Assembly: GCA_013115125.1 (NCBI GenBank) | Contig: JABANN010000345.1 | Coordinates: forward strand, 1 to 36,894 | Reading direction: 5' to 3' | DNA length: 36,894 nt | From: Perkinsus olseni | Lineage: Eukaryota | Shown: piece by piece, positions 7,472 to 13,351 of the stretch | Layout: each line of letters opens with the position of its first letter | Position numbering within the stretch: position 1 is the stretch's first letter | The notes under the pieces: generated by a model | What the model saw: the letters and a program-made list of their open reading frames with translations, nothing else | The model's database searches: none | What the model was told of the DNA's origin: nothing | Program-made: the position numbers and the translations under genes

Positions 7472-8595
7472 ATGCCTACGAGCGTCAGTGCACTGAAGTA
7501 CCTGCCCTTCTTGGAGAAGGCGATGAGGACGAAGCTGAGGAATCGGAACACTAAGATTCGACCGAAGGAGTTTTTGAAGGTAAGCCGCCTGACCAGAGGG
7601 AATGGGGCGCCCTCGAGTCCCCGGAGCAGGTGGGCAAGGAGCCGTCGATGCCCAAGGAGGTGAAGAATAAGGAACCTGAGCACATCAACATGACCAAAAT
7701 ATTCAACATCAAGCCCGGAGATCTGGTCCAGGTTAGTCCCCTAGCAGGGTCGAGTAATCGAGTGGGGTCCGTTGAGGTCCTGTACGGTCGGGATGCCGGC
7801 AAGCATGGCGTCATACGACATGTGCTGTGGCAGAAGAACCAAGTTATAGTCACGGGCTGCAACATGGTGGGCCCCCTCGCGGCGCCTCCACTGTCTTACT
7901 GTCCCTTCAGGTGAGGTCCTTCTGGCGACCGCTCCCCTCCAATACAATGAAGCGTGATGTGCTGCCGAAGGGGGCTCGGAAACCCTCGAACATCGTCACA
8001 GTAGAGGCCCCCATCCATATAACCAATGTTGCTCCGGTGGACCCTGTGACTAAGTAGCCGACCCTCTCTAGTGCCCCTATGCTAAGAACGATATCTGACT
8101 ATCTGTCGAGCTTCCTGTTGTACTGCCTGTAGGAAGCCTACTCGAATAAAGCGTCGGTACTCTATGTTCGGGGAGTGCGTTCGGATATCCAAAGTAGGGC
8201 CAGGCCAACAGTTCGGCCGTTGTCTGATTCGGCATGCCGTAGGTCTCCATGTGTGCGATGCCCGAGCCCATCACGAGGGAAGAGCAGGAGTGTGAGAGCG
8301 ACAAGCTTTACAAGCGTAGGTCAACGCGGACGGAAAAGTTGGTATGGACCGTGTGTGTCAGTGGCCAAGGCACAGCAGAAGGAAATACTCAAGGGGGCTC
8401 CAATGAGAGAAAAATATGCGTAAGCCGGGGCTTATTTATCGGGAGTGTCGGATACATATAATGCGCAGGGTTCGTGATAAAAAGCATTATGAGATGCTTC
8501 TTCGAGTGGCCAACAGGCTCCGAGTGCCTCCTGGCAGCAGGTGGGGGAACCGACGCCGCCAACATGAGGAGGACGATGATCGTGTTCACGTTTGA
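7472..8595 (+). CDS. MRPL24: Organellar (probably mitochondrial) ribosomal protein uL24, multi-exon
   Basis: KOW-type segment IKPGDLVQVLYGRDAGKHGVI...VIVTGCNM, then EAPIHITNVAPVDPVTK and KPTRIKRRYSMFGECVRISK. The last exon is inferred; stop TGA 8593-8595. Confidence 0.85.
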
Positions 8596-8608
8596 CCGAT
8601 GTGCCATC

Positions 8609-11600
8609 ATGAGTTTCAGTGTTTTTGATTCGCTGTTAGCTTCTGCGTTTATGATTGGAACTGCCTAATTTTGGTTCCTATCAGTGTCGCCAAGATAACT
8701 ATTTGGTCCCCTTGCCAAGGATAGAGGCCTCCTCATCCTTTCCCTCCTCTACAGTGGCGGCAGCAGTGCCTCCCTCTGGTGGACCTCGTCTGGCTTCCTT
8801 CGGTATCGCTGCCAAGACCCTCTCCAACCCTACAGTCACCCAAGAGGTGTCCGTCGTCCCAACGAGCGTCTCTACGGCAGCCACATCATCAGCCTCCAGC
8901 ATCGGCAGCGCCCCCTTGCAACTAGCCGTTGTTGGCAATGGTCAGTCGTCACTCTCAGCCCGTCACTTGAACTCTGTAAATAGTGCATGCCTCAGGCACT
9001 TACGGAGCCCTCATTGATAGGCGTAGTAGAGTCGTATGGTGCTGTATGGACAGGTGATGCAGCAGACCATCGCCGCTCTGTTGTGCCAGTATCATGGGCT
9101 GCAGGTTTGATGGTGATCCGATCTTCAACTCCCTCCTCAATAACGATAGTGAGGAGTCTGGCTTCTTCGATGTCGTTTTACAAGGTCAGGTCCGCTCCGA
9201 ACAGAAGTAATGGCAGTTCATACCGTTCCAGCTTCGCCACTAACTACCCCCTAGGTACATCCCCAACACAGCCATTCTGGTCACGACGCTGAGCAGCAAG
9301 AACAATGACGTCGTACAGGTGCCATTCCCTGGTCCTCTTTCCTCCCCAGACGCAGCCTCCTCAGGTCAAAGATTTCGCCCCCAAGTTTGTGCACTACGAC
9401 AGAATGTTCCGACCGTTTCAGCTCTTTCGCGTTATAACGAGGATCCGCGGGGACCCCATGATAACCGTACTAGCAGTCGGTGGAGGCATCCCCCCACCCC
9501 CTTACAGGTTCGAGTCCGCCCCACCTTCAACTACAACTCTACCGATGGTTACCAGACACGCGGCAGCCACCACATACGTTTTTGTGGCCCCACTGATACG
9601 TGGCGGATGACCTCTAACGCCAGCATCAGGGTGAGGGCCATCTTTCCTTCTTGCTGCTCGTGTCTCTCTTGGCTCATACTCGCTCCTCCGTCAGACCATG
9701 ATCGAGGAGGTCCCATTCCTAGTCCACGACCCGGTCTATATAGTATTCGGCCAGGACGAGTCCTTCGCCAACTCTCTCACTCAAGTAACCCTTCTTCCCT
9801 ATGGCCCGCATTGGTAGCCTAGGTCGACTCAGGTGTGTAAGGAGTTTGAGGATAAGACTCTAAAGTATTGGAAGCAATGGTGTATGAACCTGGTCCTCCC
9901 AGTTGACTATCAAGACATACTAGCCAGGTGAGACCCCTCAGAGCCAGCGGCGTCAGTATTCGTGCCACCAGGTCTGCAATAACCCTGTCGCTGCTCCAAA
10001 GTCATGAGTGTGGGGGTCTTGTGTCTAGTCTGACAACTGGGATACCGCTAGGTGGGTCGTTGCGAAGCGTGCTTCAGCTCTTCACTCTGTTCGTGGCAGG
10101 TCCCTCTTCGCCGCCAACACGGGACGAACGAGCGTGTCGTATACTGGACATCTGCATGAGCTTGCCGGTACCACCGCCGTTATGCTAGACCCAACGTGAG
10201 CGCCTCTCCCTTTAGGTGCTCCGTCAGTTCGGCCTCTTCACCATGGTGAGGCGGTTCCTGGAGTATGTGAAGAACCTTTGCTTCAGTAGCGGCATGAATG
10301 TGCGGCCTGTTTACAGTAATCACCCCAATCATCTTTATTCCCTTCGTACCATCAACGTCCGTTAGGTCTCATCGGGGATTCCGACGTCCCGGGAGAGCGT
10401 GTGATATACCTAGCGGGGTGAGTCCTAGTGCCAACTGAAGCTACTGCTCTCATGTGTGCTCCTCCCAGTTACCAAGGCGTTGGAGAGGTGGTCGTCGGCG
10501 GGGTTGGAGAGGGTTACGCTAGGCAGGGTCCTAGCGGCGACCCCCGCGCTAATATAAACGACCCTAATATCCCGATGTGAGTCCAGTTACTGCTGAGACA
10601 GAAGGGCATGGCGAGAGTGTAGGTACGGCCTCTTCTGTATCGCCCTCGCCCATGGCTTCTTCGATGTGCGCCTCAAGGACATCTGCAGTCCCAAAGTCTT
10701 CGACCGACTGGAGAAATTCGGTGACTCGACTGATGATTCTAGTACTCCGCCATGTACTACAGTATTACAGGGACCAAGGCTGTTGAGGCCTTCCAGATGT
10801 TCGTCACTTACACCCATGCTCCACCACCGCCACCTGCTGGGGAGGAGGAGTGGCCGAGCTACAAGGACGGGTAAAGGCCATCATCGTCACGACCGACGAG
10901 TCGAAGGCGTATTTTCAGTCCATCCCCGGGCCTCTCCTTCGACGACGACCTCCGGTTTTTAACATTAGCGGAGGATGATGATGACGACTCGGGAGGGTAC
11001 AATGACGTGGACGGGGCCGATAGGGAATGGTAGAGGGCACCCCTCCCTCTCCTTTATCTCCCAAGTTCTCCCACTCAGGGCGCATCAGCAGGGCCTCAGC
11101 GATGACTCCCGAGACTCCTACGGCCGCCCTCGTGTCCACACATTCACCTCGGTACACCTACGGATGGTTCTCGCACTTCGTCCAGTCCTCGTTGTGTTAA
11201 TACTCTGTCCTCTTCCCCCCCCTCAGGTCCTGTGCTGGGCTGCCTGTGACAGACTGCAACGTGTGGCCGAGCATCTCCACTGGGTTGAGAAGAGCAAGAT
11301 GTGGGGGTAATTTACCGGCGATAGCGTCTTCGTGATCGGCACTCTACCGTGTCCTCCTCAGTGCTTATGCTCGCCATCTCCTCAACGAGATCTGGAAGCA
11401 CGCCTGGAACAGGAAGCGACAGGTGAGTCTACCACCGCTCCAGCGGCAGTTGCCCCTACTCCTCCTCAACGACAGGCTCTTACAGCCTACTGGGGCGGTG
11501 AGCGAGTTGGGCCCAGCATCCTCCGTTTGGCCGAGATCGGCTTCGTATCATCCACGGATTGGAGGTAGTCAGACATAAGACACCGGCCGCCACCAAGTTG

Positions 11601-12160
11601 GGCACTTGCCAGGTTCGCCTCGAGTGTTGTAGCGTTCGAGCAAGATGCTCCGCTGTACTGCTGCAGCAAGGGCGCTATGAACCGCCCATCGGAGGAAAAG
11701 AAGCGATCGACACCACATGAGCTGTAAGTAGACGGGACTAGGTTGGGCCCTACCTTCTTCATTCCACCATGCAGTGAGTTTACTACTGCATCACGACTGT
11801 GCTGTAGTGACTCGAGAACTCACTCCCACCTTCAGAGGCAACGCCCTGCTGTCGTCCCCCTCTGCCACTTACCTAACGTCCACTCTGCTGTGGTATGCCG
11901 AGGCCTTGAGGAGCACTGGCCGAGATAGCGACGCTCGAACTATATTTCACGTAAGCTCCCCCGTGTCCTATCAGCCTTCCCGATGAATCGGCCTCGCCCC
12001 TTCTCAGTCCCTATGTGCTGCTTCTACTGAGTGTGGGCTGCTCTCTGAATCCATCGACCTTCAAAACTGTACCTTGTGGGGTAACTTCCCCAGCTTACCC
12101 GCGATACTCGGCTTCGTTCGTCTGGGCTGGAGGCTTTCTCGATCCTGGCGTAGCATCTAG
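8609..12160 (+). CDS. Glycoside hydrolase family 15 (bacterial trehalase/glucoamylase-like) protein with degenerate active site, many exons; start uncertain
   Basis: Spliced translation, collinear with bacterial GH15 trehalase-like proteins from end to end: LAVVGNGTYGALIDRRSRVVWCCMDRFDGDPIFNSLL; YIPNTAILVTTL; VKDFAPKF; RSAITLSLLQSHECGGLVSSLTTGIP; LAGYQGVGEV; YGLFCIALAHGFFDVRL; VHTFTSVLCWAACDRL; SILRLAEIGFV; LLWYAEALRSTGR; GLLSESIDLQNCTLWGNFP...RLSRSWRSI* (TAG 12158-12160). Confidence 0.85.
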
Positions 12161-12293
12161 TCGGCGACCCATTCAAGTACTCGACATCGTGTTTTATCAT
12201 CAATAGTATTGCGTTGGTATAGCTCACTAGGGTGGTTAATCACAGTACTAGTCAACAACCTAGTTTGTTTTAAGCAACCTAGAAGTCCGTTAA

Positions 12294-13351
12294 ATGGCGG
12301 TATCACCGGCCAGTACACTCGGAGTGGGCCCTCTGAGTCGTGTCATCTCATACCTGGACCTGCCCTCTCTCCCAGAAGTCTCCACTGTTAACTCAGAGTT
12401 TGCAGCGGCAGTCTCTCGTCGCCTGCAAAGAATCGAGTCCGCGTCAGTTCTACAGGCTATCGCTGGGCAGCCGTCTGTCTCGGAGAGGGTCACGGACTGC
12501 ACCCTCCACTTTTGCCAAGAGGACCTATCATCTGTTATATCAGAGATCAACTTCGGCCAGTTGAAGCACTTGGATTTGAGTGCTTGTCAGTGGCTCGACG
12601 ATGCGGCCGTGATGGGCCTGTCGCACCATACGGGGAGTCTCGAATACTTGGGTAAGGCAGCCGTAATAGACCTCGCATGGAGACCTGTTCGTTCTTGTCA
12701 GATCTTTACTGGTCCGCTGCTATCAAGTCGGACACAGCCCTTTGCCACCTCATCCGGGCCAATAAAGGGCTCCGCTACCTCTCATTATCGGGCGTCAAAG
12801 CTACGACGGATCGGGTCGTCATGGCAGCATGTTCTCAGCCAGGGAGGGCGATGCTGGAAACTCTCGACCTCACGAGATGCCCACGCATCACCGACGCCTC
12901 TCTCATGGCGATTGGCTCATCATATGGCGATTCCCTGAAGGTGCTCCGTCTCTATGCGACGACTCAGTTATCTGATGATGGCTACTCGGCTCTGAAACAT
13001 CTGAGGCGTCTGGAAGTTTTGGATCTTTGCGGACATATAAACCTGTCAAGCTCAGCGGCACGGGAGTGTCTCCAGTGCATGCCTAACCTAAAGCGTTTGA
13101 ATCTAACTTGGTGTAAACAGATCGACGACTCGGTGATGGAGACCATCGGAAACTACAATACCAGAGTTCGCTGGCTCTCTGTGTTCGGCGCGAAGAACCT
13201 GACGAAGCGATCTTTGGATGCAGTCTCTGGGCTCACCCTCACCCACTGTGATTTTAGAGGGATACCTAACCTGTCTGATTACACCCTCGATGACTGTAAA
13301 GGTCTGAGGGAGCTATTTCCGAGACTAAGGGAATGGATACTTTTCTCTTAG
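12294..13351 (+). CDS. F-box/leucine-rich repeat (FBXL/AMN1-type LRR) protein, 2 exons
   Basis: Degenerate F-box (LSRVISYLDLPSLPEVSTVN) and repeated LxxLxLxxCxxIxD units (LKHLDLSACQWLDD, LETLDLTRCPRITD, LKRLNLTWCKQIDD). Intron about 12652-12701 joins ORFs 12294 and 12677. Confidence 0.85.

Follow-up and report, generated by a model that had tools for sequence, protein, structure and literature searches.

A maintained GH15-like gene of Perkinsus olseni from a clade without most of the catalytic motifs: a probable non-hydrolytic pseudoenzyme

We analyzed a stretch of 36,894 nucleotides from Perkinsus olseni (assembly GCA_013115125.1, contig JABANN010000345.1, positions 1 to 36,894 of the forward strand; hereafter the window), a eukaryotic sequence in which short introns are numerous. 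On its forward strand, to which all coordinates below refer, a gene of 24 modelled exons ends at position 12160 and encodes a protein related to glycoside hydrolase family 15 (GH15). The loss of its active-site motifs is common to one clade comprising Perkinsus, Amoebophrya (Syndiniales), dinoflagellates and Chromera. We consider it probable that the product is a maintained GH15 pseudoenzyme that does not hydrolyze sugars and acts by binding.

A spliced GH15-like gene and its predicted fold

The exon chain was guided by tblastn with two proteins that had been found by querying with one reading frame of the window, P0001 (Perkinsus chesapeaki, 1206 amino acids) and P0002 (691 amino acids). The resulting 24-exon model comprises 2301 nt and encodes 766 amino acids without an internal stop; its 23 introns are all of the GT..AG type and are 41–112 nt long. 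Exon 1 (8609–8620, followed by an intron at 8621–8684) carries the ATG proposed in a first-pass annotation made from the sequence and is provisional, having no RNA support. Exons 2–24 form the RNA-supported gene body (8685–12160), which is backed by the model, by the tblastn alignments of P0001 and P0002 and by RNA contigs. Exons 2–9 lie at 8685–8940, 8996–9053, 9105–9206, 9255–9318, 9365–9466, 9508–9630, 9695–9784 and 9833–9927, exons 10–17 at 9972–10051, 10100–10167, 10216–10315, 10366–10417, 10469–10576, 10623–10720, 10771–10870 and 10919–11029, and exons 18–24 at 11079–11151, 11227–11306, 11362–11422, 11476–11564, 11613–11723, 11836–11950 and 12008–12160. The stop codon is TAG (12158–12160).

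Public sequencing runs support this structure. Twenty-four runs contain ∼0.24–0.42 of the sampled words from 8400–12400, which is the fraction expected of a spliced transcript. Contigs of four runs were placed on the gene (X3 and X13 are RNA-Seq on record; X1 and X2 are RNA by guess) and taken as evidence of presence and structure, not of expression level. In all four runs the contigs join exons at the modelled boundaries; the listing gives 15 of these joints, each of the GT..AG type, and stops short of a further 8. One contig (X3 record 9; 2311 nt) spans 8688–12185 and another (X1 record 1; 2272 nt) spans 8707–12165, the length of each being equal to the summed exons 2–24 in its range. Because of these lengths, together with the listed joints, we conclude that introns 2–23 are all removed as modelled. 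The first-pass description of an intact spliced frame held over the 24 exons and 766 residues, with neither stop nor frameshift, and the RNA-seq check of the exons that it had proposed returned contigs from four runs that match the modelled joints. In the contigs of these runs, neither base differences nor indels nor alternative forms came up. Consequently, no transcript restoring the missing motifs was seen among them, including the alternative exons with WxRD or WE that the annotation had named as evidence against its own interpretation.

The GH15 kinship of the product is visible to profiles only. Eighteen single-frame pieces of the window matched no Pfam family, the orthologues P0002 (13.2 bits) and P0003 (16.8 bits) missed the PF00723 gathering score of 22, and P0001 gave no PF00723 row. 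A database search with P0002 yielded 90 proteins, among them one group at 40–50% identity that includes Polarella glacialis and Chromera velia. Bacterial relatives with the architecture PF19291, PF00723 and PF22422 matched P0002 in phmmer with E values of ∼1e-100 and 31–34% identity over ∼95% of the length. An hhalign comparison of the clade with the bacterial proteins gave a probability of 100 and an E value of 2e-122 over 590 columns. In hmmsearch, a profile of 25 bacterial GH15 sequences scored 457 bits against the spliced product, with residues 80–478 and 555–765 aligned; the product therefore tracks the bacterial trehalase-like GH15 proteins to its C-terminus, as the first-pass annotation had read it. 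By these comparisons, the product is clearly of GH15 descent, with homology over both of its domains.

The fold is predicted to consist of an N-terminal β-sandwich and an (α/α)6 barrel. An AlphaFold (AF2) model of the orthologue P0002 has a predicted local distance difference test score (pLDDT) of 74.1 and a predicted template modelling score of 0.80, and the strands of the β-sandwich are present in it. The best Foldseek match of this model was glucoamylase 1LF6 (E value of 5.7e-10), with which it aligns over 513 residues across residues 28–687 (VIA Z of 29.1, root-mean-square deviation of 3.4). The next structural matches, 5Z3E/5Z3C, 9JU0 and 1UG9 (Z of 28.6, 28.2 and 27.0, respectively), are all GH15 proteins. 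In the product, the predicted β-sandwich domain comprises residues 86–300 (8928–9925) and is the most conserved part, whereas the former catalytic barrel domain comprises residues 301–766 (9926–12157), as placed by hhalign, the structure match and HMMER. Searches of the PDB by phmmer with P0002 and with the bacterial relative P0025 returned nothing meaningful. Designer pentatricopeptide-repeat proteins topped a profile search of the PDB, above the GH15 entries; we rejected them as a spurious repeat artefact because only a helical hairpin of 21–33 residues (profile positions 515–547) matches, repeatedly.

Active-site motifs and constraint across the clade

GH15 catalysis uses two glutamates, an acid in the α5–α6 loop and a base in the α11–α12 loop, and also conserved in the family are five regions and an Asp holding the −1 glucose at O4 and O6, as set out in an excerpt of PMC12446779. 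In a MAFFT alignment of the product and all 90 relatives we compared 64 bacterial rows with a 27-row clade (the window product, P0001–P0024, P0081 and P0084). The named members of the clade are P. chesapeaki, Polarella glacialis, Chromera velia, Amoebophrya sp., Effrenium voratum and Durusdinium trenchii. Key residues of NWDYRYCWLRD (block S1), QxDVYG (S2), PDAGxWE (S3) and GLLxE are 96–100% conserved among the bacterial rows, whereas S1, S2 and S3 as written are absent from all 27 clade rows. One hundred columns are conserved at 95% or more in 63 bacterial rows; 44 of them are kept and 39 are lost in the 21 full-length clade rows, and the columns lost sit in S1–S4.

In the product, S1 reads TRDERACRILD (10117–10149); it preserves D336, R338 and D344 but neither Trp, none of the Tyr residues and not the final Arg. 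In place of S2 stands NIPMYG (10566–10629), which is split by the intron at 10577–10622. Both substitutions had been called in the first-pass annotation; the coordinates and reading of the first match ours, and the second bears out in the alignment. In the region in place of the S4 Arg-Tyr block (residues 653–692; 11647–11878), the bacterial-consensus residues R508, Y509 and D513 are lost. GLLSE with the general-base Glu E730 (12035–12049) and WGNFP (12077–12091) are kept, so that the annotation was right about both for the product itself but not about the base as a family trait: this position is Glu in 17 of the 27 clade rows and Gln in the other 10, Chromera and P0002 among them, and the base Glu is therefore not a feature of the family.

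The general-acid block has given way to an expanded α5–α6 loop of 76 Pro/Asp-rich residues (479–554; 10797–11121), as delimited by HMMER: nodes 388–397 of the bacterial profile, which make up PDAGxWE, are unmatched in the product. The Trp and Glu of this block are 100% conserved in the 64 bacterial rows and are kept at that column in one of the 27 clade rows (Chromera). In the MAFFT alignment, the GLWE columns with the former general-acid position are occupied by GADR (11013–11024), with Arg for Glu; this placement is uncertain, the loop being variable. Within the loop lies the acidic motif SFDDDLR (10935–10955). Most clade members have such a motif, with the consensus [FY]F[DE]DD and a hydrophobic residue next to it on the C-terminal side. 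F510 and D512 reach at least 90% conservation in the clade, and the bacteria have no equivalent of either. The earlier description of a Pro/Asp-rich insertion at about 10800–11130, ahead of VHTFTS (11134–11151), in place of PDxGxWE was thus correct as to the replacement, but the insertion is not merely of low complexity, since [FY]F[DE]DD is conserved. Three candidate remnants of the acid picked out by sequence were discarded. P0015 has a WE that directly follows the helix, Chromera a GVWE close to VHT, and the window product AGEEE, which is not conserved in P. chesapeaki; their positions conflict and none is family-wide.

The degenerate proteins form a group of their own in phylogenetic trees. 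In a tree of 84 rows, from which the fragmentary rows P0021–P0024, P0077, P0081 and P0084 were left out, they make up one side of a branch with a support of 100 and a stem length of 0.81. A fork with a support of 99 joins them to 56 canonical bacterial rows, and the branches within the clade are about as long as those among the bacterial enzymes. Support for the clade was also 100 in a second tree, built from 53 rows. The topology is compatible with one bacterial transfer into an early myzozoan, the donor and direction being conjectural. Identity of the product to P. chesapeaki P0001 is 95–96% over 532–537 aligned columns, and 43 columns are conserved at 90% or more in the clade yet differ from the bacteria.

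The two domains differ in their conservation. In the N-domain (residues 86–300), the product is 98.4% identical to P0001, 69.8% to P0002, 62.3% to the Polarella protein and 59.1% to the Chromera protein; the corresponding values for the C-domain are 88.7, 43.6, 43.2 and 39.2%. Over all pairs with a C-domain identity of 30–60%, the N-domain exceeded the C-domain in conservation in all 160 clade pairs (median N/C ratio of 1.27), compared with 1% of 877 pairs of bacterial enzymes (N/C ratio of 0.82), a contrast to be read as a pattern. By these identities, constraint in the clade has moved from the barrel to the N-terminal β-sandwich. Such a pattern would be expected of relaxed selection on the sugar-cutting barrel, with the β-sandwich keeping or gaining a function, and is unlike that of a pseudogene.

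The clade members nearest to Perkinsus are P0092, P0098 and P0017, which are uninterrupted open reading frames (ORFs) of 630–660 amino acids on contigs of 72–376 kb (150 kb for P0092 and 376 kb for P0098); uncultured alveolates with few introns are a possible source. Close relatives of the clade protein P0005 were not confirmed in GTDB species genomes (0 of 8 pattern matches), and none of 47 matches of the clade profile in IMG/VR was confirmed. A metagenome scan gave five loci without genomic context, four being contigs of ∼1.3–2.1 kb and one a single 24-residue match. A library-wide profile search retrieved 7278 proteins at E ≤ 1e-3, 2903 at ≤ 1e-10 and 651 at ≤ 1e-30; among its best 150 rows, only the top few belong to the clade.

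Two further sets of proteins were seen in these searches. The members of a second group (P0107, P0110–P0113 and P0121/P0258) have motifs that are only partly degenerate, for example with S2 intact and WE lost. P0113 is from the amoebozoan Phalansterium solitarium, and the contig sizes in this group of ∼2 kb suggest transcripts. The fork between this group and the alveolate clade was left open in the 53-row tree. P0103 (1422 amino acids) and P0104 (513 amino acids), which are Polarella glacialis proteins of the 90% cluster of P0007 labelled as ketosynthase-domain proteins, are probably merged gene models.

The bacterial sister family, by comparison, is widespread in Proteobacteria: 590 of 592 pattern matches are relatives, and 80 loci were kept. 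ORFs were listed at eight sister loci, and 13 flanking ORFs from six loci were scanned. A Trehalose_PPase gene (otsB) lies directly upstream of the GH15 gene in four of the six loci (L021, L062, L031 and L015), and a GT20 trehalose-6-phosphate synthase gene (otsA) lies directly downstream in four of six (L021, L062, L007 and L031); at L074, a TreT-type synthase is found near the GH15 gene instead. Two of the 13 scanned ORFs had no family match. In the more distant relatives P0088–P0090, GH15 is fused to a trehalose-phosphatase domain. The best NCBIfam matches are the archaeal trehalases TreH1 and TreH2 (NF041084 and NF041085), both for the sisters, which are nearest to TreH1 (E value of 4e-93), and for P0002 (1e-24 to TreH1). 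P0002 misses the equivalog cut-offs (87.2 versus 820 bits and 77.1 versus 1000 bits), and the sisters themselves reach only ∼310 bits. Because the sisters sit in otsB–GH15–otsA operons and relatives are fused to trehalose-phosphatase, the ancestor was very probably a trehalose-pathway hydrolase. A survey from 2010 lists a fused trehalose-6-phosphate (T6P) synthase–phosphatase and a 'trehalase' in Perkinsus, the gene for the latter being unnamed in the part of the survey consulted (PMC2935371).

The 5′ end and the neighbouring genes

The first-pass annotation had the protein begin at ATG 8609, and this start was not upheld: no contig of the four runs covers 8606–8682. The ATG sits 14 nt past the stop of an upstream ribosomal L24/KOW gene (PF17136 and PF00467; 7472–8595). 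Contigs of the GH15-like gene start at 8683, 8688 and 8707 in the four runs, and the one starting at 8683 carries four unmatched letters ahead of its match. At the downstream F-box/LRR gene (12294–13351, with its ATG at 12294), loose contig ends read ...CTTGGCTCA just before 12262 and ...CTCA at 12244; the former resembles what we take to be the tail of the perkinsid/dinoflagellate spliced leader. Because of the contig starts, the unmatched letters and the spliced-leader-like end downstream, we suspect trans-splicing to an acceptor at 8683/8684, with ATG 8609 left outside the mature mRNA.

From 8685 onward, ATG occurs first at 8938, where it is out of frame, and does not occur in frame until 9046. 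The segment encoded by 8920–9045 aligns residue for residue with the conserved N-terminal strands of the family. The N-domain is preceded by a Ser/Ala/Pro-rich N-terminal extension of 81 residues (5–85; 8685–8927), which is in frame and has no in-frame ATG. Translation could begin at a non-AUG codon, such as ATA 8721 or GTG 8754, both of which are in good context, or the protein could be N-terminally truncated.

The P. chesapeaki annotation skips the same 5′ part, by gene fusion. P0001 (FOL47_008886), a 'hypothetical protein', is a model that merges the L24/KOW, GH15-like and F-box/LRR genes; Pfam finds ribosomal L24/KOW at its start and F-box/LRR at its end. Both neighbouring genes in the window, which lie on the forward strand, were placed by tblastn and Pfam of P0001.

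Probable role and comparison with known systems

Gene structure, expression, homology, the fold of an orthologue, clade-wide motif loss and the shift in constraint are what the data show; a loss of hydrolysis, a binding role and a link to trehalose are what we infer. A non-hydrolytic protein that acts by binding is probable because the predicted scaffold is intact, the acid and most of the −1 residues are gone clade-wide, the base is dispensable and constraint lies outside the barrel. The first-pass annotation had called the protein maintained and non-catalytic. The former is well founded, the gene being transcribed, spliced and nearly identical to that of P. chesapeaki, with a clade-wide loss and newly conserved columns; the latter gains support from the loss of S1–S4 in the 27-member clade, as far as sequence can indicate.

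The family would have descended from bacterial trehalase-like GH15 enzymes of otsB–GH15–otsA operons. On the stem of the clade, the general-acid block would have been lost along with most residues of the −1 subsite (in S1 the two Trp and Arg, in S2 Gln and Asp, in S4 Arg-Tyr), and the α5–α6 loop would have expanded, with its conserved [FY]F[DE]DD motif. Purifying selection, apparently strongest on the N-terminal β-sandwich, would have acted thereafter. The present-day protein may be a pseudo-glycosidase that serves as a scaffold, regulatory partner or ligand sensor, plausibly tied to trehalose metabolism; because of the operon ancestry, our most economical guess is a ligand or partner from that pathway. 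A more specific and decidedly unlikely version makes it a putative trehalose- or T6P-responsive regulatory subunit, derived from the bacterial OtsB–GH15–OtsA module and a partner of the fused T6P synthase–phosphatase. Binding would then occur via the hyper-conserved β-sandwich, with the [FY]F[DE]DD loop as the switch. If true, such a subunit would be the alveolate counterpart of the pseudoenzyme subunits in other sugar-signalling complexes.

Several observations weigh against a maintained protein that only binds. The start codon of the gene is unexplained, which makes the modelled N-terminus provisional. The fold is assigned through the model of P0002, which is only 44–70% identical to the product by domain. 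Because the pairs share ancestry, the contrast between the N- and C-domains provides no test statistic. The [DE]DD motif of the loop could supply an acid, its position being uncertain in a part of the P0002 model with a pLDDT below 55. Finally, E730, D344, D336, R338, H560 and W568-D572-R573 survive from the sugar site, so that ligand binding or some chemistry is conceivable.

Retention of the first four of these residues would fit a protein that is still an enzyme, in which E730 and an acidic residue of the [FY]F[DE]DD loop catalyze hydrolysis or transfer on another substrate. The motif is the sole conserved acidic element of the insertion and is new to the clade, and there is precedent for a changed GH15 mechanism with the fold kept, for example in dextran dextrinase, as described in the same excerpt (PMC12446779). 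We nevertheless regard a rewired enzyme as unlikely. With Gln as the base in 10 of the 27 members, including those of Chromera and P0002, a Glu-dependent mechanism is no family property; no part of the clade retains the S1 Trp residues and Arg, the S2 Gln and Asp or the S4 Arg-Tyr, and constraint is weaker on the former catalytic domain than on the N-domain.

Missing catalytic motifs, together with an RNA-supported 5′ part that has no in-frame ATG before 9046, would also be found in a decaying or recently dead pseudogene transcribed by chance. This is extremely improbable given 24 exons without stop or frameshift, precise splicing in four of four runs and 95–96% identity to P. chesapeaki. Moreover, the same degenerate state, with invariant columns, extends from Chromera to the dinoflagellates, and the clade has branch lengths like those of the bacterial enzymes. 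It is very unlikely, too, that the protein is non-catalytic with a role unrelated to trehalose or glucans, for example a structural or organelle-associated one exerted via the β-sandwich and the Ser/Ala/Pro-rich extension. Such a role would fit the strongest constraint falling on the N-domain rather than the sugar pocket and the 81 residues that precede this domain, and the trehalose link draws on the bacterial operon context alone. Against an organellar role, a term search of the main text of a Perkinsus mitochondrial complexome study found no mention of glucoamylase, GH15, glycoside or glycosyl hydrolase, or trehalase (PMC13623125).

If the favoured reading of a binding pseudoenzyme is correct, it bears on annotation. 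Databases label family members 'GH15 family glucan-1,4-alpha-glucosidase', and metabolic reconstructions that count the gene as a trehalase or glucoamylase would be wrong. The clade includes coral-symbiont dinoflagellates. The shift in constraint from the barrel to the β-sandwich offers a handle for finding what the GH15 N-domain binds. We found no published description of the degenerate GH15 clade in the literature searched, which omits most subscription journals.

By descent, the closest relatives are the GH15 proteins of proteobacterial ots operons (P0025 and P0036; L021, L031 and L062). They share with the product the two-domain architecture, the length class, the N-domain blocks and the WGN, CWAxDR and VHT blocks, with 31–34% identity measured for P0002. 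They keep all of S1–S5, whereas the product lacks S2, S3, S4 and, in part, S1 and has in addition the 76-residue loop at the acid block and the N-terminal extension. The characterized GH15 trehalases, archaeal TreH1 and TreH2 and Thermoplasma Tvn1315, have the same layout of β-sandwich and catalytic domain, according to an excerpt of PMC11327188; P0002, however, falls far below the TreH1 and TreH2 equivalog cut-offs and lacks the catalytic blocks. The structures that best match the P0002 model, glucoamylase 1LF6, isomaltose glucohydrolase 5Z3A–F, dextran dextrinase 9JU0 and glucodextranase 1UG9, are only 10–12% identical to P0002, and all have both catalytic Glu residues.

Closest in kind are the D1 domains of phosphorylase kinase α and β, compared here by description only. 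In an excerpt of PMC10978961, these are glucoamylase-like domains without detectable activity, the β subunit lacking some catalytic residues. They are eukaryotic, GH15-derived domains that have become regulatory or scaffold parts. In α and β, D1 is the first of five domains (D1–D5) within a kinase complex, whereas the P. olseni product starts with the β-sandwich, ends 25 residues after WGNFP, right after the barrel, and comes from a different, trehalase-like branch of GH15. Catalytically dead relatives of glycosidases are already known, and the whole conserved alveolate family described here is probably a new, well-delimited example.

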